Shown one piece after another: positions 2,618 to 18,449 of a DNA stretch of 64,000 nucleotides. Every line of letters starts with the position of its first letter. Position 1 is the first letter of the stretch. The stretch spans positions 1,081-65,080 of the forward strand of contig CAYHLX010000004.1 of NCBI GenBank assembly GCA_964357605.1, given 5' to 3'. Under the pieces are notes generated by a model that saw only the letters and a program-made list of their open reading frames with translations, made no database searches and was not told where the DNA came from. This DNA comes from an uncultured Candidatus Saccharibacteria bacterium (lineage in GTDB: Bacteria > Patescibacteriota > Minisyncoccia > Phycocordibacterales > PALSA-1337). A program made the position numbers and the translations under genes.

Positions 2618-2712
2618 TATTTGACCAATATTTAAATTTTGTTATACTGACCGAGATGTAGGAATCTGCATCTGGAGCCCGCGGAAGTGATTAAACACTC
2701 CTCGGTGGCAAC

Positions 2713-2745
2713 AAAACACCGCTTCATGCGGTGTTTTGTTTTACT
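2713..2745. terminator. Rho-independent terminator (bidirectional)
   Basis: AAAACACCGC-ttcat-GCGGTGTTTT followed by a T-rich tail. Abuts the stop of the minus-strand methyltransferase. Confidence 0.6.
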
Positions 2746-3556
2746 TTTCCAAAATATAAAAGAAATATTTCCACTCTCTATTTTTAAAGGAATTATATAG
2801 GTCAGAACCCTTAATTCCTGAAAAATCTACGGAGACTTTCTGAAATATTTTTGGTACTAGTTTTTTAATTGTATTCATCCTACGTTCACTATCTTTATCA
2901 AGAGCACTTACAACATTCATCGTTATGTCCTCATCTTTCACAATCCTCATGCCAGAATTAAGCAAATCTGATTTAAGTTGCTCCATTTTTTCTACCACAC
3001 GATAATCTGTAATAAGTAAACATCCTTTAGGGCGAAGGACTCTTCTAACCTCCTTAAGAAATTGAGGAAAATCCTCATAATGATGGGAAGTTTCAACATT
3101 TATTACAACATCAAATGAATTATCTAGGAAAGGAAGATTATGTGCATCAGCAACAATGAAAGATAGATTTTGAATTGATTTATATTTATCCTTGTTAAAA
3201 GTAATGGATCTTTTTGTAATATCACTTCCAACAACTTTTTTAGGTGACAAATATCTAGCAATGTAAGAAGCCCCCCCACCGCGACCACACCCAATCTCAA
3301 GTATATCCTTACCATACACATCAATACTTGAGGCAATGTGATTATATAACTGTAACGAATACCTATCATTTTCATCTATAGTTTCTAGTGGTAAATTACT
3401 ACCATCGTCATAACCATAATTCATAGTCATGATTTCATTATTTTTATCAAGAACACCTACTATTGAATACCAGCTATTTGATAAAAGTTTATTTAGTGGT
3501 TTGTATTCATAAATACTCATGAATAAACTATCCAAAAAAGAAGTGATTATTTTCAT
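2741..3556 (-). CDS. Class I SAM-dependent methyltransferase
   Basis: Motif I LEIGCGRGGGASY, acidic DI post-motif, DVVINVETSHH. AT-rich relative to its neighbours. Confidence 0.7.
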   Translation of the reverse strand: MKIITSFLDSLFMSIYEYKPLNKLLSNSWYSIVGVLDKNNEIMTMNYGYDDGSNLPLETIDENDRYSLQLYNHIASSIDVYGKDILEIGCGRGGGASYIARYLSPKKVVGSDITKRSITFNKDKYKSIQNLSFIVADAHNLPFLDNSFDVVINVETSHHYEDFPQFLKEVRRVLRPKGCLLITDYRVVEKMEQLKSDLLNSGMRIVKDEDITMNVVSALDKDSERRMNTIKKLVPKIFQKVSVDFSGIKGSDLYNSFKNREWKYFFYILEK

Positions 3557-3570
3557 ATAATTATTATAAC

Positions 3571-5013
3571 TTACTTCCTCATAAACAAAGCCTCGGCAAT
3601 CTTGTTATCCTTCAAAGCCTGCGCTATTTTTTCTGAGGTTTGTGGCAAAATTGGTCTCAAGAGAAACTCTATTTCTGCAATCTGTGTTAGTAAATATGAG
3701 ATCTGCTCTTTCCCCTTCTGTTCATCTGTTTTAATAACTTTGAATGGTTGGTTATCCTGGATAAATTTATCCGCATGTTGAATACGCAACCAGATATCAT
3801 CACAAACTCTATTGATCTCAAATGAGGCATAAAACTCTTCATGGCGGGGATCTTTTTGTGGCACAAAGTTGTGATCAAGCCTGATCTCATTCGTCTCAGC
3901 CATTTTCATCACCCGACTCACGAGATTTCCAAGACCATTCGCGAGGTGCGCATTGTAGGATTCCTTAAACTTCTCCATCGTAAAGGGACTATCTTCGAAG
4001 GGGTGAACTTCTCGGAGAACAAAGTAGCGTAAGGCATCCGTACCGTATTCTTTGATGATCTCTAGGGGGTCCACGGTGTTCCCTATTGATTTGCTCATCT
4101 TGATACCACCTTCACCAGTCACAAAGCCATTAATTACTATTTGCCTTGAATTAGGTAGTCCAACAGACATAAGCATCGCTTGCCACATGGCTGACTGCTG
4201 TCTAAGATTGTCTTTACCGCAGTACTGAATCACTCCTCCAGTCTTTATCCACCATTTTTCAAATGATTTTTCATCCTTGGGCCAACCAATGTTAGAGATG
4301 TAGCTCACCAAAGCATCGAACCAAACATACATCACATGATTTGAGTCATCTGGAACTTCCACACCCCAAGACATTTTACTTTTCAAACGAGAGATACTAA
4401 AGTCGTTAAGCCCACCCTTTACAAAGGATTTTATTTCATTAAATCTAAAAGAAGGTACAACAAAATCAGGATTCTTTTCATAAAAATCTAGGAGAGGTTT
4501 TTGAAATTCACTAAATTTAAAAAAGTAATTTTCCTCCTCAATTTCCTCAATTACCAAGGATGGATGGATCGGACACTTTCCATCCACCAGTTCCGAATCA
4601 GTTTTTTCTAGCTCACACCCCACACAGTATTTGATTTTGTAATTTTTCTTGTAGATATAGCCGTTTTTCTTGCAGATCTTCCAAAACCCTTGAGCTGATT
4701 CTATATGTTTGGGGTCTGTAGTACGATGGAAGTGTACGTCAGAAGAAATACCGAGTAGATTCATCAAATTTTTAAATGTCAAAGAAACTTTATCTACAAA
4801 CTCTTGGGGTGGCAGACTGAGAGCTTTAGCATTTCTTTCAATCTTTGCCCCATGTTCGTCAGTGCCCATACCCAAAAACACTTCGTAACCATCTATTTTC
4901 TTTACTCGCGCGATCACGTCTGCTCTGATAAATTCCAAAGCATGGCCAATATGAGCCTCTGCATTCACATAAGGTAAAGTCGTGGTGATGTAAAAACTCT
5001 TATTTTCTGTCAT
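3571..5013 (-). CDS. metG: Methionyl-tRNA synthetase, minimal form without a C-terminal tRNA-binding domain
   Basis: HIGH motif (AHIGHALE), KMSKS, and Zn-knuckle cysteines CVGC...C. Confidence 0.9.
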   Translation of the reverse strand: MTENKSFYITTTLPYVNAEAHIGHALEFIRADVIARVKKIDGYEVFLGMGTDEHGAKIERNAKALSLPPQEFVDKVSLTFKNLMNLLGISSDVHFHRTTDPKHIESAQGFWKICKKNGYIYKKNYKIKYCVGCELEKTDSELVDGKCPIHPSLVIEEIEEENYFFKFSEFQKPLLDFYEKNPDFVVPSFRFNEIKSFVKGGLNDFSISRLKSKMSWGVEVPDDSNHVMYVWFDALVSYISNIGWPKDEKSFEKWWIKTGGVIQYCGKDNLRQQSAMWQAMLMSVGLPNSRQIVINGFVTGEGGIKMSKSIGNTVDPLEIIKEYGTDALRYFVLREVHPFEDSPFTMEKFKESYNAHLANGLGNLVSRVMKMAETNEIRLDHNFVPQKDPRHEEFYASFEINRVCDDIWLRIQHADKFIQDNQPFKVIKTDEQKGKEQISYLLTQIAEIEFLLRPILPQTSEKIAQALKDNKIAEALFMRK

Positions 5014-5034
5014 GGACTAAGTATATCATCAGGC

Positions 5035-6309
5035 CTATTTTTTAAAAGTTAAAAGAGATTTCAACTTTTTTTCATCTTTATTGGGACCAATCACCGCCAA
5101 ATTTAGATTTTTATCAACAAATATTTCCTGAGCTAATTTTTGTATTTCGCGAGCGGTCACCTTCTCTGTTTCGGTGATCACCTCTTCGGGCAACCTAATC
5201 TTTCCCTTGAGAATCTCTTGGAATCCGGCAAATTCGGCCTGAGCATCAGAGGTTTCCAGATCCAACATTGTCGTACCAGCCAGATAATCTTTGGCTTTTC
5301 TCAACTCTTTTTCAGAAATTATTTCTTCTTTAAGTCTATTCAACTCTGACAGAATCGTAGAGATTGCGATTTCCAATCTCTTGTTATCAACTCCCGCAGA
5401 AATAGTTAGATCACCATGATCGGTATTAGGATTATGCGAAGCTCTGATGTAATAGCAGATTCCTAGCTCATCTCTCATTTTTGAGAAAAGACGTGAGCTC
5501 ATCCCCTTTCCCAAGATCGTCGTCAACATCCTCATGGTCGGAATTCTCGGATCGAGAATGGGAAAAGTTCGGAGGCCAATCACCAAATGGCTTTGATCGG
5601 TCTCTTTATAAACCACCTTTAGTTCTGGTTTCGTTTGAGATTCTTGAACGGCGACTTTTTTAGCTTTTGGCTGACGAGGAATATCCTTGAAAATTTGTTC
5701 TACCTTCTTTGTGACTTCTTTTTCGTCAATAGAACCAGAGACAATGACCGTCGTAGCTTCGGCCACATAATGTTGGTCTTTATAAGCTACAAAATGCTCT
5801 CGACCAAATTTCCTAATATTTTCTTCTGGACCAGTCACACTCCAACCGGCTGGTTGGTCTGGGAACATAAGTTCACCTAGCACATCCTGAACATGTTGCT
5901 GAGGTAGATCATTGTACATTTTTATTTCTTCAATAATCACTCCCTTTTCTTTATTTATTTCTGCTTCATCAAAAAGAGGGTTCTGATACATGTCAGAAAC
6001 AATATCCAAAGCTGTATCTAAATGCTTAGGATCCACTTTAGCATAATAGCCAGTATATTCCTGTGAGGTGAAAGCATTGTATTGGGCCCCGAGACTATCC
6101 AATTCTCTGGAAAGATCACTCGCTTTTGGTCTTCTGGGAGTGCCTTTAAATATGACGTGCTCTAGAAAATGCGACAGGCCATTGATCTCTTTCGTCTCGT
6201 ACTTTGAGCCCGCTTCAACCATGACCAAAACGGTCACGGCGGGATTATCCTGCATGGGTACGGTAATAACTCTTAGGCCATTTTTTAGAACGGTTTTGGT
6301 AAATTTCAT
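5035..6309 (-). CDS. M16-family zinc peptidase (insulinase-like)
   Basis: Inverted zinc motif HFLEH...E. Confidence 0.8.
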   Translation of the reverse strand: MKFTKTVLKNGLRVITVPMQDNPAVTVLVMVEAGSKYETKEINGLSHFLEHVIFKGTPRRPKASDLSRELDSLGAQYNAFTSQEYTGYYAKVDPKHLDTALDIVSDMYQNPLFDEAEINKEKGVIIEEIKMYNDLPQQHVQDVLGELMFPDQPAGWSVTGPEENIRKFGREHFVAYKDQHYVAEATTVIVSGSIDEKEVTKKVEQIFKDIPRQPKAKKVAVQESQTKPELKVVYKETDQSHLVIGLRTFPILDPRIPTMRMLTTILGKGMSSRLFSKMRDELGICYYIRASHNPNTDHGDLTISAGVDNKRLEIAISTILSELNRLKEEIISEKELRKAKDYLAGTTMLDLETSDAQAEFAGFQEILKGKIRLPEEVITETEKVTAREIQKLAQEIFVDKNLNLAVIGPNKDEKKLKSLLTFKK

Positions 6310-7635
6310 TTAGTTTATTTTTGCTTTCAAAAATTGAACTAGATTATCTAGAGAGATTCTTTCCTGTTTTCCTGTATCTCGATCACGGACAGTCACGCCC
6401 TCACCTTTTTCTACGGTCTCAAAATCAATAGTCACACAGAATGGTGTACCAATCTCGTCCTGTCGGCGATAGCGCTTGCCAATGTTACCGTTGTCGTCGA
6501 AAGTTACGGCACCAAATTCTTTCTTTAGTAGTAGATAAATCTCTTTAGCTTTTTCTACAAGTTGAGGTTTATTTTTAAGCAGAGGAAATACAGAGATCTT
6601 TGTCGGAGCTACTTTTGGTGAAAGTTTAAGATAAACTCTCTTTTCTCCATCTACCTCATCTTCGGTGTAGGCATCGGAAAGTACAGCCAGGATAGTACGA
6701 TCAAGACCGAAAGACGGCTCTATACAGTGAGGAATGAATCTTTCTTTGGTTTCTTCATCATAATATGAAAGGTCTACTTTGCTAAATTCAGAATGCTGTT
6801 TTAGATCAAAGTCTGTTCTGTAGGCTAGGCCGTAGAGCTCTTTTCTGCCAAATGGGAAATCAAATTCAAAATCAATCGTCCTTTTTGAGTAGTGAGCCAA
6901 TGAATCAGCCTCAATTTCTAATTCATGAACGTGTTTTTTATTTAACCCAATGTCTGCTGTATAGTTGTGCACTTCTTTTACAAAATGCTCAAATGTTTCC
7001 TTCCAATCTTTTGGATTTACAAAATATTCAATTTCCATTTGCTCAAACTCTCTCGCACGAAATAGAAAATCTCGTGGAGCAATCTCGTTCCTAAAAGCCT
7101 TCCCTATTTGGGCCATGCCAAACGGAAGTTTAGGATGAAATGTATCTAGAATGTTTTTAAAATTTACAAACATGCCCTGGGCCGTTTCCGGTCGAAGATA
7201 TGATACGGATGCAGAGTCAGTACTTGCTCCCACATGAGTTTTGAACATCATGTTGAATTGCTGTGCTTCACCAAGTTGTCCTCCACAATCTAGACATTTT
7301 TTTGTATCAACGAGTTGATCTGCACGAAAACGATGTTTACACTTTTTGCATTCAATCATCGGGTCAGCAAATCCGCCTACATGTCCACTTGCCTCCCATG
7401 TTTTTTGATTCATGAGTATGGCCGCATCAACGGCATACATATCGTCGCGATCATCTACAAAACGCTTCCACCACAATTTCCTGACATTATTTTTTAGCGC
7501 AACACCTAGAGGACCGTAGTCCCAAGTCCCAGCTAATCCGCCGTAAATCTCCGAACCCTGGAAAATAAAGCCGCGACGCTTGCATAGAGTTATGATGTTT
7601 TCCATCACCTTTGAGTTTTCCTCACTTTTTGACAT
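6310..7635 (-). CDS. glyQS: Glycyl-tRNA synthetase (class II, alpha2 type)
   Basis: 441 aa. N-terminus ...CKRRGFIFQGSEIYGG... and class II motifs. Confidence 0.9.
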   Translation of the reverse strand: MSKSEENSKVMENIITLCKRRGFIFQGSEIYGGLAGTWDYGPLGVALKNNVRKLWWKRFVDDRDDMYAVDAAILMNQKTWEASGHVGGFADPMIECKKCKHRFRADQLVDTKKCLDCGGQLGEAQQFNMMFKTHVGASTDSASVSYLRPETAQGMFVNFKNILDTFHPKLPFGMAQIGKAFRNEIAPRDFLFRAREFEQMEIEYFVNPKDWKETFEHFVKEVHNYTADIGLNKKHVHELEIEADSLAHYSKRTIDFEFDFPFGRKELYGLAYRTDFDLKQHSEFSKVDLSYYDEETKERFIPHCIEPSFGLDRTILAVLSDAYTEDEVDGEKRVYLKLSPKVAPTKISVFPLLKNKPQLVEKAKEIYLLLKKEFGAVTFDDNGNIGKRYRRQDEIGTPFCVTIDFETVEKGEGVTVRDRDTGKQERISLDNLVQFLKAKIN

Positions 7636-7822
7636 GAGATGATTCTACACCGAATGCACTAAAGTTGGAAGGACTTGACGAGATATGCATTTCCTTGACT
7701 TTTCAGAAATAGATTTGCTACAATGATCGCATTGACAAAGAGGAGCGAGATCGTGATATTAAGCTCAAGAAAAAAGATCGGTTGACCCGGTCTTTTTTCT
7801 TTTATATTTTTATAGAAAATAC

Positions 7823-9766
7823 CTACTGCCTCACCACCTCATCTCCATCTCTAAATGTAGAATCTGCAGAAAATCTAGTATTCAAAGCACCTTGAGCTCT
7901 GGTCAAATTTTGTTCTGTGAAATCATCATGCGCAGTGAGAGTACTCTGTCCCATAATCACCGGTGTCTGCCCGATTTGAGCGACACTTGGTTTAAAGGCC
8001 ACCTGAAAAGCGACTTGTCTTCGGCGTTTATTGTTTATGGTATAAGTATCAACACTACCCACTTTCCAAGTGATCTCCCCAGTCCCCTTATCGTAAACAA
8101 TACTTTCATCCGTAGGATTAGCCTGTCCACGCCATGTCACATAGGCCGGCAAAGAAGATTTAACCTCTACACCAGAAAGAGTGCTTGACGTATTATCTAC
8201 TGTCCACACAATGGTATAGGTAGTCTCTTGCTCTGCTCTAGGAGGTACAGGACCAATATTAGTAAAGGGGCTTCCAGTACGGATAATCTGAGCGGAGACA
8301 GAAGGATTTGAAGAAATTTTTATAACCCTAGTTGCACTTGATATTAACTGTTCTGGAACATTGCTTTCGGACACTCGTTTACCCCTTACATCTACAATTA
8401 ATGACAGGGTCGGATTCGCGACCGTCTTAAAGGTCGTGCTCGTATCTCTAGGAGTAAGATTGAATGTTACTTTCCCCTCTTCTCCAGCACCTACATTTCC
8501 CAGATTAGGAGTGGTAATTCTATTCCAAACTATGGTGTTATCCGCTGATTGGTACAATCCTTGGCCAGGAGACACGGAAAACTTATCGAAAGCATTGCCA
8601 GATAATTTGATATAGACTTCCCCATCGGTAATCGCCGTCGGCAGATTATTGAACCATGATATGTCAGTCTTTATAGATTCATTAAACTCTCCAATAAATT
8701 CTTTAATGCCCATAGAATCTTCCAAAGCAATACCAACGGTGATGAATGGTTTCTTGATAGTCAATTCCTGTATATGTGAAATAAACTCGGTACCAATGAT
8801 CGGTATTTGTGATCCTTGACCACTTTCTGAGCCCACAATAAACCTGAAAGCTCTCGTTTCATCATCTTGACCTTCGAGTTTACCATTCACGATGATAGAC
8901 CTCTTTCCTCCAGGAGGAATATCCCCTATTCTCCAAGATGAATTGTTTCCTGATGTCTTAACGTCTGACGAAAGGTAAGTAAAACCAAATGGATAAATAG
9001 CCTTTAGAGTAATATTTTTTAATGTTTCCTGTGAATTAGAAATTAGGGTAATCTTGGTATCAAAAGTTTGTCCAGAAGTAATCTCCTTAAAAGACTCGAC
9101 AGAAAGTGAAAGAGGAGATGAGCTCAAGAGAACATCAAAAGATTTTTGTTTCTGAAAAATAGCGTTGGAACCTTTTACCTTATAGGAAGTAGTGATGATG
9201 ATGGTCTTTTTACTATTCTCTTGTCCATAGACGATAGCTTGAACAGTCTTTTGAGCAACACCACCCGCTTCTATATCATTCATAAGTTCACGAAACTGTT
9301 TTAATTCCTTCGTATCATCAGCAGGATCTACGGTACCGGAAGGAAAATCCACCACAAAATCTACGTTCTCTAACTTGATGTTATTTTTATTGATCACCTG
9401 CACATCAAAGGTCACAGGCGTACCACCAGAAACAGACACGGGGCCACTCACCGTGATATCGATATTATTTGTAGAAACGATATTTGAACCATTGAAAACA
9501 AGGTAAGTGCCTATTCCAACAGCTAACACAAAAAAGACAGTTGATGCAATAAAAAGTTTAGTCAAAAATGACATGGAATGATCTTCATATCTCTTATTAA
9601 GTAGAATGTCCTCATCATTTTCTGGTGGATGCTCCCAATCTGTTTGTATTCCTTCCGTATCTGGTTTTTCAAAGTGAAGCCTACGCTTAGTCCTCACGAG
9701 AGGAGCATTGCGAGAATAGAGAGATTTTTTAAGTTCTTCAATTTGACTTCGATCCTGCTCTGACAT
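7823..9766 (-). CDS. Hypothetical membrane-anchored extracytoplasmic protein
   Basis: 647 aa. One N-terminal TM helix (LFIASTVFFVLAVGIGTYLVF) and a long beta-rich ectodomain. Confidence 0.45.
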   Translation of the reverse strand: MSEQDRSQIEELKKSLYSRNAPLVRTKRRLHFEKPDTEGIQTDWEHPPENDEDILLNKRYEDHSMSFLTKLFIASTVFFVLAVGIGTYLVFNGSNIVSTNNIDITVSGPVSVSGGTPVTFDVQVINKNNIKLENVDFVVDFPSGTVDPADDTKELKQFRELMNDIEAGGVAQKTVQAIVYGQENSKKTIIITTSYKVKGSNAIFQKQKSFDVLLSSSPLSLSVESFKEITSGQTFDTKITLISNSQETLKNITLKAIYPFGFTYLSSDVKTSGNNSSWRIGDIPPGGKRSIIVNGKLEGQDDETRAFRFIVGSESGQGSQIPIIGTEFISHIQELTIKKPFITVGIALEDSMGIKEFIGEFNESIKTDISWFNNLPTAITDGEVYIKLSGNAFDKFSVSPGQGLYQSADNTIVWNRITTPNLGNVGAGEEGKVTFNLTPRDTSTTFKTVANPTLSLIVDVRGKRVSESNVPEQLISSATRVIKISSNPSVSAQIIRTGSPFTNIGPVPPRAEQETTYTIVWTVDNTSSTLSGVEVKSSLPAYVTWRGQANPTDESIVYDKGTGEITWKVGSVDTYTINNKRRRQVAFQVAFKPSVAQIGQTPVIMGQSTLTAHDDFTEQNLTRAQGALNTRFSADSTFRDGDEVVRQ

Positions 9767-9781
9767 AGCTATATCATTATA

Positions 9782-10339
9782 TCATAGGTGGCTTTCCTTT
9801 AACGCATTGTTAATCTCCTTTATCGCAATTGTCTTAATCTTTCTCATTTCTCCAATGACCTCTTTGGTAAAATCATTATTAAGGAGAAATATTTCCAGTA
9901 AATTACTTTTAGAGATATAACCGAGAGAATGGAGTAGTCTAAGCATTATGATACACTCTACAATTTCAGCTTCTTCTTCAGCAAAAGGCAAGTTGTACAA
10001 AGCCTCTACTATTTCAAACAATTTTTCATTCTTTTCTTCACCAGTGAGCATTCTTTTAAGGACCTGGAGCACTCTCACAAAAAGAGGTGTTGGGGTTCTT
10101 TTTCTATCTCCCTCCACCGCCCCGGTCAACCTCCACATCTCTTTGCCACGAACCAAGGAAACATTGACGAAAGCATAATCTTGCAAATGATACCTTAGTT
10201 TTGAGCTAGACAGACGTACCCCCTGTGCCGTGGCCCAGAGCATGCCAAAATCTCGAGTAAAAAGTAGGAGTGATTTACCCGCTTCCCCATTGGCTGTGCT
10301 ATGGATAACAAAGGCAGGTGTAGTGTAGATATGATGCAT
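9782..10339 (-). CDS. recO: DNA repair protein RecO (short form)
   Basis: The N-terminal OB-fold pattern AFVIHS..GE..K.LLLFT...G.LWA.AQG matches RecO. Confidence 0.55.
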   Translation of the reverse strand: MHHIYTTPAFVIHSTANGEAGKSLLLFTRDFGMLWATAQGVRLSSSKLRYHLQDYAFVNVSLVRGKEMWRLTGAVEGDRKRTPTPLFVRVLQVLKRMLTGEEKNEKLFEIVEALYNLPFAEEEAEIVECIIMLRLLHSLGYISKSNLLEIFLLNNDFTKEVIGEMRKIKTIAIKEINNALKESHL

Positions 10340-10344
10340 GAGAT

Positions 10345-13300
10345 CTACTTATCAATACTCATTTTGAGAGCAAATTCTCCGATCGTCATAATTTCCCCTT
10401 CTAGATTTTCAAACTTTAAATCTTTCAGGAGAGTAGTTGAGAAAATGGAATTTTTATTTTTCATGATTAACTCTTGGGCTTTTGAATCTGCATCGATCTT
10501 AAGTATGATCTTATCTTGTATTGTAAAACCTTTCTCTTTTCTAAGGTCCTGAATAGTTCTAGTAAGTTCGCGAACAACTCCTTCTTCCTTCAATTCTGCA
10601 GTCAAAACTATGTCTAGCACAACCTCCTCCAAGATCGCTACGTCTGTGACCACCTCTTTAACATTTACCTCATCTTGAATAATCTTGACAAGATGAGCTG
10701 GAAATAAACCTTTGACAGTAAGTTTAGCCAATGGCTGTCTAACATTTATTTTAGCTTTCATACGGGCCTCGAGTCCTGTAGACGCTATCTGCCTTACTTC
10801 TTTCATATCAGAAAGAATTTTTTCATCTGGCTTTTTTAACTCTGGCCATTCCTCTAAATGAACACTTTCTTTTTCCCCTTTTACTCTCTGGTAGACATCT
10901 TCTGCTAGAAAAGGCATGAAAGGAGCTAACAGTTTAGAGAGATCCAAAAGAATCTTTCTTGTTGTAGAAAGAGCAGATCCCCTTTCATTGGCATCATCAT
11001 TCTTAAATCTATCCCGTGATCGACGAACATACCAAGTAGAAAGATCATCAATAAACTCGGCAAATGGTCTGGTCGCCCGATCTACTTCGTATTTTTCAAG
11101 GTTATCAGTCACCTCTTTACTCAACTCAGAAAGTCTCGCCGTAATCCATAAATCCAGAGGATCAACACTTTCAACTTCACTGGGAACATTTTTTGAGTAC
11201 ATCTCGTAGAAAGTCACGACGTTGTTCAAACGTCCAATATGTTTTTTAACAACCTCATCGACTCCCCGTTCGGAAAAACAAACATCTTGACTTCTCACCA
11301 CCGGAGATGACATCAGGAAATAACGCAGAGCATCCGCTCCATACTTATTTATCACCAAATTCAAATCAGGATAGTTTTTCTCCCTTTTCGACATCTTCCT
11401 ACCATCTTCTGCTAATACGAGACCATTGACCACCACTTTCTTGTATGGTGCTCTGCCAAACAAAGCCACTCCCAAAACCATCATAGAGTAGAACCATCCT
11501 CTGGTCTGATCCAAACCTTCGGCAATGAAATCGGCTGGATATCCCTTGGTCTTACCTAAAATCTTAGTAAATGGACCTGGTTTGGGGTTAAAATCACATT
11601 TTTCAAATGGATAGTGAGCTTCTCCAAAAGGCATGGAGCCAGATTCAAACCAGCAATCAAAAACTTCTGGAATTCTCGTAAGCTTATTTCCTTTTTCAGA
11701 AACAAGTTTCAGGTCATCAATGTATGGACGGTGGAGATCTGTTTCATATTCAGCATTATGTGGAAGCGGGTGAAAATCAAGCTTTCGGGGTTTGGCATTT
11801 TCATTGTAGTGATCACTGTGTCCCCTAAATAGAATAGATTCTATTCTATCCAAACCCCTCACCACAGTCTCCAAGAGAAAAAGGGGGGTGTCATGAGAAA
11901 TAATCAAGATATTTTTTCCTACATATTTCTTTTCTAGATCATAGAGCACCTCGCCCATTCTTTTTTTTATTTCTGTATAGTTCTCTCCGCCTTCAGGGAC
12001 ATCTATAAACCGATCTGCTTCTTTAAAGTGTGTCACAAAATCATGAAAGTTTTTGCCATTCCAGATTCCCGCATTTAATTCCTTCAATCTTTCATCAGTC
12101 AAAATATTTTTTCCATCAAGCCCTATTTCTCTGGCCACAATTTCTGAGGTCTGTTGTGTCCTCGGAAAAGGAGAGGTTACGATGAGATCTATTTTTTTAT
12201 CTTTCAGCCACTTTCCAGCTTCCTTGGCTTGTTTTTTTCCTTTTTCAGTTAGGTTGTGAGGATTGCTGGCGAGCGAACTGATCATAGAGGTGACGTTGTT
12301 GTCTGCTTCCCCATGGCGACTGACATAATAAGTATTTTTCGCATGGCTGTATTTTTTTAAGTCGGCAATGGAAGAGAGGATGTGACATGTGTCAGTTTTC
12401 TCTTCTCTCCAGACTGGCAATGGTGCTCCCCAGAAACGAGACCGCGAAATCGCCCAATCACGAGCACCCAAAAGCCAATTACCAAACCTCCCCTCTCCGA
12501 CTTCAGCTGGTGTCCATTTTACTTTTTTATTTTCTTTAACTAATTTATCTTTTAGATCTGTCACTTTTACAAACCAGGATGAAGAAGCATAATTTAAAAG
12601 TGGAGTATCACAACGCCAACAGTGTGGGTATGAGTGGATTAGTTTTTCTTTGGCAAAAAGAGTACCGTGAGCGGCAAGGTATTTGATGATCTCGATATCG
12701 GCTTTTTGATGTTTGTCTTTTTCTTCTTCGGTGGATTTCGGTTTGACATCAAGACCTACAAAATCCGTCACTTCTGATTTAAATTTACCATTTGTTCCAA
12801 CATGTTGAACAAAGGGTAAATTGTGTTTAAGAGATAACTCGTAGTCATCCGCCCCAAAGGCCGGAGCAATGTGCACGATCCCTGTTCCGTCCTCTGTCGT
12901 GACAAAATCACCCCCATAAACTTTCCAACCATTTTCCTTATTTTTTAATTTTGTATCTTTAGAATAGTAATCAAAAACTGGTTTGTATGATTTTCCAATA
13001 AGATCTTTTCCCTTGATTTCAGAGATTTGAGTATGATCAATTTTTATGGCAGATAGTCTAGATTTAGCGACATAGAAAAAATCGTTGTTTATTTTTATTT
13101 TGACATACTCAACCTCTGGACTAACGGCGAGAGCCACATTTCCAGGCAAGGTCCACGGTGTGGTTGTCCAGGCCAGAAAATAAGTACCCGGTTCATCAAC
13201 AAGCTCAAACTTCACATAGACAGAAATATCGGTGATGTCTTTATATCCTTGGCTCACCTCAAAATTGGAAAGAGTGGTCTCGCAACGCGGGCAGAGATTC

Positions 13301-13833
13301 ATAGACTTGAACCCTTCGTAAACCAAACCTTTCTTGTGTAATTCAGCAAAAGCCCACCAAACCGATTCTGTATACGTCGTATCCATGGTTCGATAATCAT
13401 TTTCCATATCTACAAAACGGCCAAGTCTGGGAATGATTCTTCTCCAATCATCGGCATATCTCATGACACTAGCTCGAGCTTTTTCATTAAATTTTTCTAT
13501 GCCATACTCAACGATATCTTTTTTTGAGGCGAGATTTAATTCTTTTTCTACAATATTTTCCACTGGCAAACCGTGACAATCCCAACCCCATCTACGACGT
13601 ACACGATAACCCTTCATCGTCTTGTATCGTGGAATCAGATCCTTTACCGTCCCCGGTACGACATGACCATAATGCGGTTCCCCAGTGGCAAAAGGAGGAC
13701 CGTCATAAAAGATAAAATCACCCTTGGGAGATTCTTTCTCAAGAGTTTTTTTGAAAATACCCTTTGCTTGCCAAAATTCCAGGATTTTCTCTTCAGTTAG
13801 GGCAACTTTACTTTTTTCCATATTAAATGCCAT
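10345..13833 (-). CDS. ileS: Isoleucyl-tRNA synthetase (type 2, eukaryote-like) with an inserted histidine-phosphatase (PGAM-like) domain
   Basis: DGPPFATGEPHYGH, zinc knuckles CPRC/CWRC around the CP1 editing domain, and KMSKR. About 200 aa (aa 495-690, nt 11764..12351) with RHGEADNN...LTEKGKKQA...ISHD lie between WGAPLPVW and TDLHRPY. One continuous frame. Confidence 0.85.
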   Translation of the reverse strand: MAFNMEKSKVALTEEKILEFWQAKGIFKKTLEKESPKGDFIFYDGPPFATGEPHYGHVVPGTVKDLIPRYKTMKGYRVRRRWGWDCHGLPVENIVEKELNLASKKDIVEYGIEKFNEKARASVMRYADDWRRIIPRLGRFVDMENDYRTMDTTYTESVWWAFAELHKKGLVYEGFKSMNLCPRCETTLSNFEVSQGYKDITDISVYVKFELVDEPGTYFLAWTTTPWTLPGNVALAVSPEVEYVKIKINNDFFYVAKSRLSAIKIDHTQISEIKGKDLIGKSYKPVFDYYSKDTKLKNKENGWKVYGGDFVTTEDGTGIVHIAPAFGADDYELSLKHNLPFVQHVGTNGKFKSEVTDFVGLDVKPKSTEEEKDKHQKADIEIIKYLAAHGTLFAKEKLIHSYPHCWRCDTPLLNYASSSWFVKVTDLKDKLVKENKKVKWTPAEVGEGRFGNWLLGARDWAISRSRFWGAPLPVWREEKTDTCHILSSIADLKKYSHAKNTYYVSRHGEADNNVTSMISSLASNPHNLTEKGKKQAKEAGKWLKDKKIDLIVTSPFPRTQQTSEIVAREIGLDGKNILTDERLKELNAGIWNGKNFHDFVTHFKEADRFIDVPEGGENYTEIKKRMGEVLYDLEKKYVGKNILIISHDTPLFLLETVVRGLDRIESILFRGHSDHYNENAKPRKLDFHPLPHNAEYETDLHRPYIDDLKLVSEKGNKLTRIPEVFDCWFESGSMPFGEAHYPFEKCDFNPKPGPFTKILGKTKGYPADFIAEGLDQTRGWFYSMMVLGVALFGRAPYKKVVVNGLVLAEDGRKMSKREKNYPDLNLVINKYGADALRYFLMSSPVVRSQDVCFSERGVDEVVKKHIGRLNNVVTFYEMYSKNVPSEVESVDPLDLWITARLSELSKEVTDNLEKYEVDRATRPFAEFIDDLSTWYVRRSRDRFKNDDANERGSALSTTRKILLDLSKLLAPFMPFLAEDVYQRVKGEKESVHLEEWPELKKPDEKILSDMKEVRQIASTGLEARMKAKINVRQPLAKLTVKGLFPAHLVKIIQDEVNVKEVVTDVAILEEVVLDIVLTAELKEEGVVRELTRTIQDLRKEKGFTIQDKIILKIDADSKAQELIMKNKNSIFSTTLLKDLKFENLEGEIMTIGEFALKMSIDK

Positions 13834-13843
13834 TTTAGCATTT

Positions 13844-15556
13844 TTACATCTTTTCTGGAACTTTTATGCCGAGAACCCAGAGACCATTCGTGAGGACATG
13901 AACAAAAGCTTTGGTCAGAGCAACTCTATAAGGTGAGAATGGGTCTGTCTCATCAATGATCTTGTTCGTTGCGTAATATGAGTTAAAAGCCGAAGACAGC
14001 TCCACCAGGTAGGTCACAGTGTGATGTGGGGCATATTCCAAACGAGATCGCTCTATGACTTCAGGAAAACGTACCAACATCCTTTCTAACAACTCTACTT
14101 TTTCCGGCATATTTTTTATTTTTGTAGAGATATCTGCCTCTAGAGCTTTCCTTATCACCGCTTCTGCTCTGACGCAAGCATACTGAAGATATGGTCCAGA
14201 ATCTCCCTCAAAAGAAACTGTTTTATCGGGATCATAAGTGATGTCGCCACCAATCGCCTGTCGCAAGACTACATATTTGAGAGCAGCCATTGCTACAATC
14301 TCCGCGACTACTTCTTTTTCATTTTCCTTCCACTCCCTATCTTTCATTTTTCCCATAACCAAAGATTCGAACTCCTTAATCAGATTTTCTGCAGAAACAA
14401 TATTCCCTTTTCTCGATGACATCTTGCCAGAGGTAGGGCGAAGTAGACCATGACTTAAATGTTTCATTCTAGAAGCAATGTTCGGATAGAGACATTCCAC
14501 GGTTTTGATCAGAACCTTGAAATAGTCACTTTGCTCATTGGCGGTAATCACCACTGATTCTCTCAAGTCCGGGTGCAAATCAAATTTCTTCTTAGTTAGT
14601 CCTAGTTCTTTAGCTTCATAAGTTGGTAAGCCTTCTGAGTTAATAAAAACTCTGGTATGCAATCCATGTTTTTCTCCAGGAAAAACGATCGCTCCTTGGC
14701 TTTCTTCAAATACACCTTTTTTGATAAATTCTTTGACTATTTTTACACCATCGAGAGCCACTTCACTCTCTGGGAAATATTCGTCAAAACTGGTGCCTAA
14801 TTTTCGGTAGATAGTTTCAAAATACTCTAGACTCCAACTTTTGCCGAGATCATAAAAAGAATTTATTTCTGGGTCTGATTTTTCAAATATTTTCTTATTT
14901 ATTTCAACAATCTCCTTCTTGACTGATTCATTTTCATAACTATTTGCCCCAAGGACATACATTTCGCCTAAAAATTCTATCCTAGAGACTAACAATATTT
15001 TTTCACTGGGAAATTTTTCTTTGTTCTGCAAGAGAGCCCACATGGTCTTGGCCACATGTAAACCTACATCACCATAATAGTTGGCCCTTATCACTTCTGC
15101 TCCAGAAAATTCGATGAAACGAGAAATCGATTCTCCGATTGTGTTGGACATGAGATGACCGATATGAAAAATCTTGAAGGGATTAGGGTCGGTATACTCA
15201 ACCATCACTTTTTTCCCCTTATCACAATTCCCTTTTCCAAAATCTCCATCAATCTTTAAAACTTCTTTAGAAAAGTATGAATCAACTATTTTAAAATTTA
15301 TAAATCCGGGACCGGCAATCTCCACCACACAAACTTCAGCTGGTAAATTTTTCTTGAGCTCAACCATGATATTTTCGGCTAAAGCTTTTGGACTGCTCTT
15401 GACTATTTTGGAATATACTAGGGCGATGTTTGAGGAAAAATCACCATGATTAATATCATCTGGATGTTCCAAATTGATCTCCGGATCAATGATTCCAACC
15501 TTATCTGAAGCCGCCTTTAAGCTATTCTTTATTTTCTGTTCTATATTTTGTCTCAC
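13844..15556 (-). CDS. argS: Arginyl-tRNA synthetase
   Basis: FHIGHLMSNTIG (HIGH region) and the C-terminal DALR-domain motif GPYLQYACVRA. Confidence 0.9.
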   Translation of the reverse strand: MRQNIEQKIKNSLKAASDKVGIIDPEINLEHPDDINHGDFSSNIALVYSKIVKSSPKALAENIMVELKKNLPAEVCVVEIAGPGFINFKIVDSYFSKEVLKIDGDFGKGNCDKGKKVMVEYTDPNPFKIFHIGHLMSNTIGESISRFIEFSGAEVIRANYYGDVGLHVAKTMWALLQNKEKFPSEKILLVSRIEFLGEMYVLGANSYENESVKKEIVEINKKIFEKSDPEINSFYDLGKSWSLEYFETIYRKLGTSFDEYFPESEVALDGVKIVKEFIKKGVFEESQGAIVFPGEKHGLHTRVFINSEGLPTYEAKELGLTKKKFDLHPDLRESVVITANEQSDYFKVLIKTVECLYPNIASRMKHLSHGLLRPTSGKMSSRKGNIVSAENLIKEFESLVMGKMKDREWKENEKEVVAEIVAMAALKYVVLRQAIGGDITYDPDKTVSFEGDSGPYLQYACVRAEAVIRKALEADISTKIKNMPEKVELLERMLVRFPEVIERSRLEYAPHHTVTYLVELSSAFNSYYATNKIIDETDPFSPYRVALTKAFVHVLTNGLWVLGIKVPEKM

Positions 15557-15794
15557 TCAATCATTCTAACATTAAAACTGTTATTTGCGTCAAAATTTGA
15601 CTTTTTTAGAAATTCTGTTATCTTACAGAAAGTGATTTGAACCTTCCGGTGAGATCAGAGACAAGTGATGTGCGTTGCCAAACCTCCATCACCAAAGCAA
15701 TGGCACGCTGTTCGTGCCTAAAAGTCTCTTCGATCTCCCACCCTTCCTTGTTCCGTTCTGCCGACGGATTGAGGAAGGGTTAATTTTTTATGTA

Positions 15795-16997
15795 CTATTT
15801 CTTTCGCAAGATCTGATCTATCCTCTCCGCAATCTTTTTCATGTCTTTTTCTTTTTTCCCACGAGTAGTTTCCGCCGCGGTTCCTAAGCGGATACCAGAG
15901 GGATCAAGTGGCGATCGTGTATCAAAAGGGATAGTATTTTCATTTACAATGATTCCCGCCGCCTCGAGTCTGTCGGCGGCCTCTCTTCCGCCCATTCCTT
16001 TTCCATTTTCCCAAACATCAACTCGAAGAAGATGGGTCTCGGTTCCTCCTTCCACTATTCTCCAACCTAGACGAGACAGTTCGTCGGAGAGAGCTTTGGC
16101 ATTCTTCTTGACCTGAGCTGTATATTTTCTGAAAGCAGGAGTCATTGCTTCCTTGAGAGCTATTGCCACAGCCGCAATCTGATTGAAGTGAGGGCCTCCC
16201 TGAAGACCGGGAATTATAGCCTTGTCAATGAGCGTAGTAAATGAAATTTCCTTTCCCTTTGAATTGGTCCTGGTCTTATTCTTTCTTGAAAAAATGATAG
16301 CCGAACGGGGTCCACGAAGAGTCTTGTGAGTGGTAGTCGTCACGATATCGGCATAAGGAAAAGGAGACGGATACGCTTTGCCCGCGACAAGTCCCCCGAA
16401 ATGAGACATGTCGATCATCAGAATTGCTCCGCAGGCATCTGCTATTTCCCTGAATTTACTGAAATCAATGATGTGGGCGTACGCAGTAAATCCGGCGACA
16501 ATAAGTTTCGGATTTTCAGCCAGGGCCATCTGCTTGATTTCTTCATAATCCAAGAGTTCGGTGTCCTTGTTCACTCCGTAGAGAACTGAATTCCAAAACT
16601 TTCCTGTCATGGAGACTTTTTGCCCATGAGTAAGGTGCCCTCCATGACTGAGTGTCATTCCCATAATTTTTTCTCCTGGCGGCACAAGAGCAGAATATAC
16701 TGCAAGATTTGCAGGAGAGCCGGAGAGCGGCTGAACATTCACCCCCCACTCGCTTTCTTTGAGGTCGAATAACTGTCGCGCTCTTTCCTGAGCGATTGTT
16801 TCTATTTTATCAACTATTACTGTTCCCCTATAATAACGCTGGCCCGGATAGCCTTCTCCATATTTATTGGTAAGTTCAGACCCAAGAGCTTCGAGAACAT
16901 CCTTAGAAACATAGTTTTCTGATGCAACAAGGTTCACCACACTCTTCTGGCGCTTTTTTTCAATGTCTATTAATTTTTTAATTTGAATATCTTTCAT
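15795..16997 (-). CDS. glyA: Serine hydroxymethyltransferase
   Basis: LVASENY, PLP-lysine region TTTTHKTLRGPR. Confidence 0.95.
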   Translation of the reverse strand: MKDIQIKKLIDIEKKRQKSVVNLVASENYVSKDVLEALGSELTNKYGEGYPGQRYYRGTVIVDKIETIAQERARQLFDLKESEWGVNVQPLSGSPANLAVYSALVPPGEKIMGMTLSHGGHLTHGQKVSMTGKFWNSVLYGVNKDTELLDYEEIKQMALAENPKLIVAGFTAYAHIIDFSKFREIADACGAILMIDMSHFGGLVAGKAYPSPFPYADIVTTTTHKTLRGPRSAIIFSRKNKTRTNSKGKEISFTTLIDKAIIPGLQGGPHFNQIAAVAIALKEAMTPAFRKYTAQVKKNAKALSDELSRLGWRIVEGGTETHLLRVDVWENGKGMGGREAADRLEAAGIIVNENTIPFDTRSPLDPSGIRLGTAAETTRGKKEKDMKKIAERIDQILRKK

Positions 16998-17085
16998 AGA
17001 TAATTAGAGATTAAGGGAATAATATCTGCTGATTGAAAGATAGGGAGTTAAATCATGGCAATTATTTAATACCGATAGTCTAGCA

Positions 17086-17508
17086 CTATTTCCCAGTGCT
17101 TCCAAATCCCCCCTTACCCCTCGCCGTCTCTGAAAGTTCCTCTACTTCTTCAAGTTCAACATATTCAATCTTTTGAATAAGCAGTTGAGCTATCTTGTGT
17201 CCTTTCTCAAAAGTAAAAGGGGTGTTTGATAAGTTCATCAACCCGATACTTATTTCACCACGATACCCAGCATCAATCACTCCCCAAAAAGCCTTCAGAC
17301 CATATTTTTGCGACAATCCGCTTTTGTCCCAAACAAGTCCTACATACCCTTGAGGAATTTCCATGGAGAGGCCAGTGGGTATAGATTTTCTCTCCATGGG
17401 AGCCAGTTCAAAAGATTCTAGACAATATAGATCCAGCCCGGCATCTCCTGGATGCGCATAGTTTGGTATCTTGGCTTCTGGATGGACTTTCTTTACTTTA
17501 ATTTTCAT
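17086..17508 (-). CDS. dut: dUTP diphosphatase
   Basis: GVIDAGYRGEI and RGKGGFGSTG motifs. Start taken at MKIKVKK. Confidence 0.85.
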   Translation of the reverse strand: MKIKVKKVHPEAKIPNYAHPGDAGLDLYCLESFELAPMERKSIPTGLSMEIPQGYVGLVWDKSGLSQKYGLKAFWGVIDAGYRGEISIGLMNLSNTPFTFEKGHKIAQLLIQKIEYVELEEVEELSETARGKGGFGSTGK

Positions 17509-17537
17509 GTGAAAGTAATTATAGTACAATAGCCAGT

Positions 17538-18449
17538 ATGAAACCATACAATGAACGAACACCGGATAATCAATACAAAAGATTACTCAAAGATATTCTA
17601 GAAAAAGGAGAACGCTCCAATAGTCAACAGGGGGTTGATACTATTAGCCTCATCGGTCCGGCCCCACTGCGCTTTAGATTTGATAACGGCTTTCCCATGA
17701 TCACAGAAAGAAATATGGCTCCCAAGGAAAATGAAAATCTAAAGGTCACTATTTGGAAACAAGCCATCGGAGAAATCTGCGCCTTTGCAAATGGAGTGCG
17801 AACACAAAAAGGACTGGAGGAATTTGGCTGTTCATGGTGGGCCTCATGGCTCACCGAAGAAAAATGTAAGAAAAGAGGATTAGAAACGGGAGACCTTGGA
17901 CCTGGATCATACGGAGCCGCTTTTCACGACTTTCCCACGGCAGAAGGTGGAACTTACAATCAATTCAAAAATATCATTGAACAGATGAAAGAATTTCCTC
18001 ATCTCAAAACTCATTTCATTAGTCCTTGGATTCCGCAGTATACTATTCGAGGGACCGGTAAGCAGCAGAAGGTGGTGGTCTGTCCTTGTCATGGCTGGAT
18101 TCATTTCAGAATTCTTGATAACAAATTAACCCTTCACCACTTCCAGCGTTCCGGGGATGTTCCTGTTGGCGTCCCTGCCAATATGGTCCAGTATGGTTCC
18201 CTCCTCATGATGGTGGCCCAGATTACTGGTACTATTCCTTATGAATACATCCATAGTTTTTCTGATGCACATATTTTTATTGATCAGGTTCCGGCCGTGG
18301 AGACCATGCTCACTCGAGAATCACGACCATTCCCAACTATGAAAATTGATACTTCCATAAAAGACTTTTTTGATTTTCGCAAAGACCATTTTACTCTAGA
18401 GGATTACAACCCTCACCCGGGAATAAAAGGAATTCCAGTAGCTATATAA
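17538..18449 (+). CDS. thyA: Thymidylate synthase (ThyA type)
   Basis: Catalytic CPCHGW, FQRSGDVPVGVPANM, and C-terminal YNPHPGIKGIPVAI matching E. coli ThyA ...YDPHPGIKAPVAI. Confidence 0.9.
   Translation: MKPYNERTPDNQYKRLLKDILEKGERSNSQQGVDTISLIGPAPLRFRFDNGFPMITERNMAPKENENLKVTIWKQAIGEICAFANGVRTQKGLEEFGCSWWASWLTEEKCKKRGLETGDLGPGSYGAAFHDFPTAEGGTYNQFKNIIEQMKEFPHLKTHFISPWIPQYTIRGTGKQQKVVVCPCHGWIHFRILDNKLTLHHFQRSGDVPVGVPANMVQYGSLLMMVAQITGTIPYEYIHSFSDAHIFIDQVPAVETMLTRESRPFPTMKIDTSIKDFFDFRKDHFTLEDYNPHPGIKGIPVAI

Follow-up and report, generated by a model that had tools for sequence, protein, structure and literature searches.

An IleRS2-type synthetase with an inserted histidine phosphatase module

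This study concerns ileS, the gene for isoleucyl-tRNA synthetase (IleRS), in a 64,000-nucleotide stretch of contig CAYHLX010000004.1 (assembly GCA_964357605.1) from an uncultured Candidatus Saccharibacteria bacterium; the whole stretch is referred to here as the window. The coding sequence occupies 10345..13833 on the minus strand, as do all of the ileS features described below, and specifies 1162 amino acids plus a stop codon in a single unbroken open reading frame (ORF). An earlier note on this DNA had given these limits and the uninterrupted frame, and had described about 200 extra residues, between the WGAPLPVW and DLHRPYID blocks, that carry the hallmarks of branch 1 of the histidine phosphatases. 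Each of these statements was borne out, and the gene was found to encode an IleRS2-type synthetase that hosts a module of the histidine phosphatase superfamily.

The identity of the host is clear from profile searches. The ORF scored 877 bits against the TIGR00392 ileS model (cut-off, 621.4), the match being parted into two stretches by the insert, and Pfam assigned tRNA-synt_1, Anticodon_1 and DUF5915, the C-terminal domain of IleRS2, in addition to His_Phos_1. The best solved relative is the IleRS2 of Priestia megaterium (8c8u; 719 bits); like other enzymes of this type, which include the MupA/MupB-like ones, the window protein has DUF5915, the HIGH and KMSKS motifs and the editing motifs. 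The exception models for MupB and MupA gave 753 and 711 bits against a cut-off of 1900, and ileS_w_GNAT (NF040702) gave 348 bits against 1999. The N-terminal part of the synthetase (aa 1-498; 12340..13833) comprises a Rossmann half with the HYGH motif (aa 54; 13663-13674), the CP1 editing domain, the CPRC/CWRC zinc site, the WGAPLPVW strand and the first half of a hairpin. The C-terminal part (aa 697-1162; 10348..11745) comprises the second half of that hairpin (DLHRPYIDD), DCWFESGSMP, the KMSKR motif (aa 813; 11383-11397), the anticodon-binding domain and DUF5915. The editing motifs WTTTPWT (aa 222) and GTGIVHIAPAFGADD (aa 316) are retained, and alignment with insert-less IleRS proteins showed that HYGH, KMSKR and CPRC/CWRC are all intact, in agreement with the earlier remark on the editing and catalytic motifs. 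Judged by its synthetic and editing motifs, the enzyme looks functional.

Compared with insert-less enzymes, the window protein has about 197 extra residues, which in alignment with them correspond to approximately aa 499-696 (11746..12339), a shift of several positions relative to aa 495-690, the limits first proposed. The alignment with 8c8u breaks at query residues 496 and 691, which correspond to chain residues 478 and 479; since these two are adjacent in 8c8u, there is a single insertion point. WGAPLPVW lies on one side of the insert and DLHRPYIDD...EVFDCWFESGSMP on the other. Between them is a complete small histidine phosphatase domain, as predicted from profiles, followed by a linker. 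The His_Phos_1 (PF00300) match covers aa 503-654 (11872..12327; E=6e-30) and, at 104.8 bits, is well above the gathering score of 21.7; the stretch 11764-12351 searched alone gave E=2e-31. The motifs RHGEADNN (including R506-H507-G508), LTEKGKKQAKEAGKWL and ISHD (including H647) are all present within it. No second His_Phos domain was found elsewhere in the window.

An intein or another self-excising insert was considered and rejected: no intein family appeared among the Pfam matches, the fold is that of His_Phos, the insert begins with KNTYY, and its sole HN dipeptide (PHN|AEY) precedes an alanine.

Fold and predicted active site of the module

When modeled alone with AF2, the insert gave a confident structure (pLDDT, 89.4; pTM, 0.88), consistent with a separately folded module on a loop, the possibility that the earlier note had suggested checking. 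Foldseek searches with this model returned PhoE (1h2e), PspA (4ij5/4ij6), CobC (6e4b/6nru), HFP (9mmh) and GpgP (4pz9) as the top matches, with TM values of 0.68 to 0.76 and a probability of 1.00, which confirmed the alpha/beta fold typical of phosphoglycerate mutase (PGM). The model and the matches together show the predicted domain to be an independently folding branch-1 histidine phosphatase of the short phosphatase type and not of the mutase type.

The assignment stops at the level of the superfamily. None of the NCBIfam equivalog cut-offs examined (dPGM, GpmB, CobC, PspA, SixA and RNase H/acid phosphatase) was reached by the insert. The best profile was PRK07238, bifunctional RNase H/acid phosphatase, at 86 to 90 bits against a cut-off of 326; the other scores were 38 to 42 bits for SixA (cut-off, 74.5), 70 to 75 for CobC TIGR03162 (162.9), 59 to 64 for PspA (350), and 60 to 65 for GpmB (261). 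By these profile comparisons, the module is a superfamily member that falls outside every characterized subfamily. With 21 to 28% identity to the small phosphatases and no equivalog cut-off reached, a substrate cannot be transferred from any of them.

The same comparisons bear on the idea that ileS conceals a cofactor-dependent phosphoglycerate mutase. A weak match to the short archaeal model (dPGM_arch, 84 to 88 bits) and the presence of Schizosaccharomyces pombe PGM (1fzt) among the Foldseek matches are in its favor. These scores, however, fall far below the cut-offs (88 at best against 225 for dPGM_arch; 26 against 81.7 for pgm_1), the mutases of about 250 aa rank lower in Foldseek and are covered only in part (TMt, ~0.55), and the module, at about 185 aa, stops at the last beta-strand and lacks the C-terminal tail of a mutase. 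A hidden mutase is therefore highly improbable.

The residues predicted to form the active site are R506 and H507 of the RHG motif (12310..12318), where H507 is the putative phospho-accepting histidine; R558 of SPFPRTQQT (12160..12162), the second phosphate-binding arginine; E585 (12079..12081), the predicted proton donor, which is E or D in nearly every copy; and H647 of ISHD (11893..11895), the second active-site histidine. Eight positions (R506, H507, G508, E509, N513, R558, E585 and H647) are invariant among 38 diverse sequences and at least 98% conserved among 121. In a broader sample of 164 domain copies, which came from the representative search described below and include the extra copies, about 160 have the R-H...R...E/D...H set, at a mean identity of only ~34%. 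Read from alignments, this pattern points to selection that acts on catalysis or, at a minimum, on the binding of phosphate.

The insert could in principle be degenerate, with the fold serving as a spacer or as a dimerization or ligand-sensing module without catalysis. Its average conservation (0.58) is indeed lower than that of the IleRS body (0.75 and 0.66), and the host zinc knuckle has lost its cysteines in the lineage of the window, as described below. The five catalytic residues are nevertheless invariant or nearly so across the 164 divergent copies, which makes a purely structural role very unlikely.

The module is located on a peripheral hairpin

In 8c8u and the IleRS2 proteins from outside the candidate phyla radiation (CPR), a short hairpin bracketed by CxxC...CxxC, a zinc knuckle, connects the WGxPxPxW strand to the LHRPYID...DxWF[ED]SG block. 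The module sits at the tip of this hairpin, which projects from the second Rossmann half. The earlier placement of the insert inside the catalytic core holds insofar as the insert is within the Rossmann region in sequence; the site itself is a peripheral loop and is outside the core proper. Both CxxC motifs still flank the module in distant insert-bearing enzymes (P0135, P0175, P0186, P0190 and P0270). In the lineage of the window the hairpin cysteines have been lost: the corresponding segments read REEKTDTC (aa 468-498; 12340-12432) and VSEKGNK (aa 697-720; ~11674-11745), and this hairpin presumably no longer binds zinc.

The same site has received other material. A 1282-aa IleRS from the metagenome-assembled genome 'bacterium isolate GLR2' (L041:1589-5434) has an unrelated insert of ~135 aa in the hairpin, at ORF residues ~650-785; this insert matched nothing in Pfam, even with the threshold relaxed to E<=5, nor did it match the His_Phos profile.

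Distribution in the Patescibacteria

The combination of PF00300 with IleRS domains was found in all of the 120 best homologues of the window protein (100% to 58% identity), which were drawn from NCBI, ENA, JGI and Logan assemblies; those among them that have names are all from Patescibacteria or Parcubacteria. In a scan of genomes from GTDB, with one genome per species, the module was present at the site used in the window in 21 species genomes among the 80 IleRS loci listed, and the site was empty in ~57 IleRS2 loci from non-CPR bacteria (Firmicutes, Actinobacteria, Bacteroidota and others) as well as in one Saccharimonadales locus and one Peribacteria locus; because the flank motifs used for the scan are generic to IleRS, these numbers represent a contrast of presence and absence and not a census. 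All 21 module-bearing loci belong to Patescibacteria (Paceibacteria, Minisyncoccia, Yanofskybacteria, Spechtbacterales and Peregrinibacteria/Peribacteria). We conclude that this architecture is both ancient and widespread among the Patescibacteria.

These data also dispose of the trivial explanation that a chimeric or misjoined assembly has brought ileS and a phosphatase gene together. The frame is unbroken, the same junctions recur in the 120 homologues and the 21 GTDB species from independent projects, and the base composition of the insert matches that of its host gene (GC of 0.392, compared with 0.397 for the remainder of ileS). The occurrence of the same architecture in more than 100 independent assemblies excludes a chimeric join, and an artefact can be regarded as a negligible prospect.

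To the extent that the architecture had been called undescribed, this stands for the literature, in which we found no description of an IleRS that bears His_Phos; it does not stand for the public databases, where the architecture is present across the clade under generic names ('class I tRNA ligase family protein', 'isoleucyl-tRNA synthetase' or 'hypothetical protein'). Among curated models there is none for IleRS with His_Phos; NCBIfam does include an exception model for IleRS with GNAT.

The hosts of the module were surveyed with the insert alone, which was searched exhaustively against 1.84 billion cluster representatives (50%-identity clusters). About 100 of the 150 best representatives are IleRS proteins or IleRS fragments with the module, and neither ArgRS nor any other aminoacyl-tRNA synthetase (aaRS) appears as a host among the 150; the hosts are almost always IleRS.

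Among the Patescibacteria Sua5/TsaC proteins that were retrieved (P0200 and P0271-P0389), the most frequent fusion partner is an Ogt/MGMT-type DNA_binding_1 domain (PF01035); other partners are TruB, 2H (PF13563/PF07823), GNAT, NUDIX, a DNA glycosylase (PF02245) and, rarely, the present His_Phos module.

In a Yanofskybacteria locus (L018:4669-8146), a frameshift within the His_Phos insert divides ileS into two ORFs that overlap, and in a 'Peregrinibacteria' locus (L015:4555-8403) one in-frame stop breaks the N-terminal part of the gene. Either break could be a sequencing error or mark a pseudogene, and for L015 an alternative genetic code could also account for it.

Additional copies and insertion sites

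Some enzymes carry more than one module. A tandem pair is found at the site used in the window in P0264, P0206 and P0238, and also in Peribacteria proteins of 1470-1490 aa from the GTDB loci L016:4516-8931, L017:4477-8949, L019:4486-8946 and L021:4429-7227. Other proteins combine different sites: P0143 has modules after host residues ~740 and ~880, P0196 and P0183 have one at the site of the window and one at ~880, and P0185 has one at the site of the window and one at ~740. A fragment, P0124, has four modules, one of them after host residue ~425. Overall, there are four insertion sites (host aa ~425, ~498, ~740 and ~880) and up to four copies per enzyme, and the catalytic set is retained in all of the extra copies. 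Each of the four sites falls either in the latter half of the catalytic domain or where that domain meets the anticodon-binding domain; the editing and C-terminal domains contain none.

In a neighbor-joining tree of 160 domain copies, identity was ~34% both within and between the inserted and free-standing classes. The first copies of the tandem pairs clustered with each other, as did the second copies, so the duplication is old and has since persisted. Nothing else was clear in this tree, which is too deep to separate one capture from several. A neighbor-joining tree of the host IleRS proteins with the inserts masked, for which a few loci gave the wrong ORF, did not separate insertion from fission.

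One further protein, P0205 (1066 aa), is an IleRS with three foreign domains: an IS200-like Y1_Tnp domain (340-461) in the region of the editing domain, His_Phos (680-854) and GNAT (935-1063). It suggests that IleRS is a hot spot for domain accretion in these bacteria.

A free-standing relative next to ileS

The module also exists as a separate protein. Several apparently free matches (P0128, P0157, P0229, P0152 and P0155) turned out to be IleRS fragments; for this reason, a protein was accepted as free-standing only when both its termini and its context were as expected. The true free-standing relatives are ~187-197 aa long, have consistent termini, end at the last strand as the module does, and come from Staskawiczbacteria-like lineages. 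The window insert aligns with them from end to end, from KNTY[FY]xLRHG to GExRKLN, at 35-41% identity, and exceeds them only by a 12-residue return linker, LDFHPLPHNAEY (aa 685-696; 11746..11781). This linker has no counterpart in the free-standing proteins or in insert-less IleRS and is conserved among the insert-bearing enzymes.

In the window, argS (13844..15556, minus) is directly upstream of ileS and a recO-like gene (9782..10339, minus) is directly downstream. The order argS-ileS-recO-DUF11-class II aaRS-M16 peptidase is common to the window and to the distant Parcubacteria loci L091, L093 and L094, and the conserved block can be written as argS-[hisPhos]-ileS-recO-DUF11/CLIPPER-class II aaRS-M16 peptidase. 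When contexts were sampled from the phosphatase side, all of the informative ones (L082-84, L086, L087, L088 and L090) placed the free gene between argS and an ileS that lacks the insert. In L082-84 the order is argS-hisPhos-ileS, with the phosphatase gene, at 2120-2707 of L082, 1 nt ahead of ileS; the gap between hisPhos and ileS is 10 nt in L086 and 7 nt in L087; and in L088 and L090 hisPhos directly follows argS in the same direction and ileS is convergent. Insert-less IleRS proteins of the Staskawiczbacteria type lack PF00300 (0 of 120 relatives). Independent sampling from the IleRS side gave argS-hisPhos-ileS in two of three members on long contigs (L093, with the free gene at 4225-4818, and L094/95); in the third (L091/92), argS abuts ileS and there is no His_Phos within 5 kb. 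A plain end-to-end fusion of His_Phos with IleRS was not seen among the 150 best representatives, though the two genes can be 1 nt apart and losing one stop codon would be enough to join them.

In L088 (2682-5609, minus), ileS itself consists of two adjacent ORFs with a 24-nt gap, convergent with argS-hisPhos. Positions 4371-5609 encode the N part, which comprises the Rossmann half and the editing domain; the C part, which starts from tRNA-synt_1 profile position ~187, spans 2682-4346. The gene may truly be split, or the break may be a sequencing error.

The Staskawiczbacteria-like insert-less IleRS proteins (L082:2709-5663, L087:4779-7646 and P0390-P0509) are divergent: NPWLDAGIV replaces DCWFESGSMP, they form a long branch in the host tree, and they have an extra weak tRNA-synt_1f match. 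In these lineages, ileS may have been replaced and the neighboring phosphatase gene retained.

Possible function of the module

We propose that the window ileS encodes a bifunctional IleRS-phosphatase and that the module provides an accessory activity of IleRS, either in cis, as part of the IleRS chain, or in trans, as the product of a neighboring gene in the operon. We hold this proposal with moderate confidence, and a functional link of some kind between the module and IleRS is likely. The strongest evidence for such a link is the free-standing orthologue in the argS-ileS operon together with the multisite, multicopy variants. The restriction of all four sites to one part of the host also favors it. 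Repeated internal insertion, multiple copies, the lack of terminal fusions and the use of IleRS but not ArgRS as a host argue that physical association with IleRS has been selected.

The window protein is a complete IleRS2-type enzyme that carries at its hairpin tip a whole small histidine phosphatase (~185 aa plus the 12-aa return linker). By analogy with the superfamily, H507 would attack a phosphoryl group held by R506, R558 and H647, and E585 would protonate the leaving group; the module would in this way hydrolyze a phosphomonoester or phospho-anhydride via a phospho-His507 intermediate. The selected property would be tethering to IleRS and not one fixed geometry. The module occurs at no fewer than four positions in the host and can also stand alone as a protein of its own, which makes a rigid channel from one active site to the other unlikely; tethering or an increased local concentration is more plausible.

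In class I synthetases, the KMSKS loop holds the pyrophosphate part of ATP. Because the insertion sites cluster around the KMSKS region and the second Rossmann half, a ligand or by-product that is small and phosphorylated may be handled on that side of the enzyme. As a tentative best guess, we suggest as the substrate a nucleotide by-product or a small phosphorylated metabolite that is dealt with on the ATP/KMSKS face of the catalytic domain. The roles that the earlier note had put forward, a moonlighting or regulatory phosphatase or the hydrolysis of a phosphorylated ligand close to the active site, are likewise conjectural. It can further be envisioned that the module, as one to four copies in cis or as an operon partner in trans, amounts in much of the Patescibacteria to a third catalytic center of IleRS, next to those for synthesis and editing, in which dephosphorylation is mechanistically coupled to isoleucylation; for example, a phosphorylated by-product, an inhibitor or a damaged end that blocks the charging of tRNA-Ile would be removed. 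This extension is possible but rather doubtful.

Several observations weigh against a dedicated role in IleRS function. The module reaches the cut-off of no characterized NCBIfam subfamily, and any substrate is a guess. Nor is the association obligatory; some insert-less Patescibacteria ileS genes (L091/92, L022 and L036) have no His_Phos within 5-6 kb. Sua5 of Patescibacteria is fused to Ogt, TruB, GNAT, NUDIX, 2H or His_Phos; unrelated fusions of housekeeping domains are common in these organisms, and fusion alone is therefore weak evidence. Conservation of the neighborhood may partly reflect the inertia of a deeply conserved gene block. In L088 and L090 the free-standing gene runs in the direction of argS whereas ileS is convergent with it, and the module could thus be linked to the operon rather than specifically to IleRS. 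Tight channeling between active sites does not fit well with an insertion position that varies. Finally, the AF2 model of full-length IleRS is confident for the insert, and both Rossmann halves have a pLDDT below 50 and the overall pTM is 0.39, so that the geometry between domains is not readable from it.

One more specific role was considered and dropped. The module might have substituted for a missing inorganic pyrophosphatase (PPase), but the Peribacteria, which carry the tandem pairs, are reported to encode a normal one (PMC4736985); this removes one argument for an accessory activity.

The most serious competitor to an accessory activity is that the module is a hitchhiker, an ordinary metabolic phosphatase of the PhoE/PspA/CobC/HFP kind that is mechanistically unconnected with aminoacylation and whose gene neighbored ileS and was absorbed into tolerant surface loops through a tendency to fusion and compaction. 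Its closest folds and profiles are those of metabolic phosphatases, its net charge is close to zero, which would suit an enzyme acting on small molecules, and certain lineages have no His_Phos near ileS. In addition, Sua5 of CPR bacteria fuses promiscuously with unrelated domains, and the loops of IleRS are permissive, since they also host the GNAT and IS200-like domains of P0205 and the ~135-aa insert of L041. Terminal fusion, which would be easy, is nevertheless unseen among the 150 best representatives, while modules have been inserted internally time and again, at four sites and in as many as four copies that keep the catalytic set. The host, moreover, is nearly always IleRS and in none of the 150 best representatives ArgRS, although argS adjoins, and the old tandem duplication has been kept with its catalytic residues intact. 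On balance, we consider hitchhiking unlikely, although it merits consideration.

A second possibility is that the module acts on tRNA or RNA ends and strips a 2'- or 3'-phosphate, such as one left when a 2',3'-cyclic phosphate is opened, from damaged tRNA, which would give IleRS a built-in repair or quality-control function that enables the charging of tRNA-Ile. Variable tether positions would suit a large, flexible substrate that is already on the enzyme; a close relative of the module is fused to the tRNA modification enzyme Sua5, which elsewhere in CPR is fused to a 2H cyclic phosphodiesterase; and among NCBIfam profiles the highest score goes to the phosphatase half of bifunctional RNase H/acid phosphatase. 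However, the surface is not consistently basic (mean net charge, -0.7; median pI, 6.45), and there is no clear reason why a general repair activity should reside on IleRS alone. The Sua5-His_Phos fusion is rare, occurring in only 4 clusters, and in view of the many unrelated partners of Sua5 we have given it little weight as a functional clue. We know of no member of the histidine phosphatase superfamily that acts on RNA ends, and our literature search found nothing relevant that links the superfamily to tRNA. Such an end-repair activity appears improbable.

The superfamily also contains protein phosphatases (SixA, PGAM5 and Sts-1), and the module could be one of these, with IleRS or a partner as its target; for example, it might undo inhibitory phosphorylation by a kinase toxin. 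Here tethering alone would suffice, which fits the variable sites and copy number, and there is the weak match to the SixA profile. That match is well below its cut-off, the closest folds are those of small-molecule phosphatases, and no kinase was seen in the conserved neighborhood; we regard this role as decidedly improbable. An accessory activity of IleRS is the reading that we prefer.

Relationship to known systems

The module resembles PhoE/YhfR (1h2e, 1ebb), PspA (4ij5), CobC (6e4b/6nru), HFP of the riboflavin pathway (9mmh) and GpgP Rv2419c (4pz9) in fold and size. It shares with these small branch-1 phosphatases the R-H...R...E...H set and is predicted to share their phospho-histidine chemistry. 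In contrast to these independent metabolic enzymes, the module is found inside an aaRS or in an aaRS operon. On the side of the host, 8c8u and ~57 non-CPR IleRS2 proteins have the uninterrupted CxxC...CxxC hairpin, unlike the window protein with its 197 extra residues and lost cysteines.

Two precedents for the architecture come close. The ileS_w_GNAT family is likewise a bacterial IleRS with an extra enzymatic domain, and P0205 bears both His_Phos and GNAT; the accessory domain, however, is a different one. PRK07238 (Rv2228c type) likewise joins a branch-1 His_Phos domain to a nucleic acid-processing enzyme, but it is an end-to-end fusion with another partner, whereas the window module is inserted internally. 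A more general parallel is the CP1 editing domain of IleRS, ValRS and LeuRS, a universal hydrolytic insert in the class Ia Rossmann fold that hydrolyzes misactivated or mischarged amino acids. With the present module, the catalytic domain that hosts CP1 would contain a second hydrolase as an insert; unlike CP1, which is universal and has another fold and a defined role, the module is lineage specific and of the phosphatase type.

The aminoacyl-tRNA synthetases are among the most conserved enzymes. To our knowledge, those of bacteria rarely gain new domains, and an unrelated second catalytic domain within the catalytic region is very unusual. The finding reported here is real and robust, and the combination is a synthetase with an accessory domain that matches no curated model. 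What is unusual is that the accessory is a second enzyme within the catalytic domain, that it is widespread, and that it also exists as an operon partner. An addition that is ancient, repeated and under purifying selection, and that also has an operon counterpart, suggests that a phosphatase reaction matters for translation or for IleRS in bacteria with minimal genomes; a coupled phosphatase, if confirmed, would represent an accessory function of a kind new to aaRSs. The locus may also provide a natural example of domain insertion by the capture of a neighboring gene, and the insertion may explain why annotation pipelines do not name these ileS genes, as their generic database names imply.

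Other genes in the window

The window ileS is part of an aaRS-rich housekeeping block (2741-18449), in which the genes from 2741 to 17562 are on the minus strand and thyA is on the plus strand. Apart from ileS and its immediate neighbors, the block contains, starting from the 2741 side, genes for a methyltransferase, MetRS (3571-5013), an M16 peptidase (5035-6309), a class II aaRS (6310-7635) and a 647-aa DUF11/CLIPPER-like protein (7823-9766), all on the minus strand. Beyond argS are SHMT (15795-16997, minus), dUTPase (17086-17562, minus) and thyA (17538-18449, plus).

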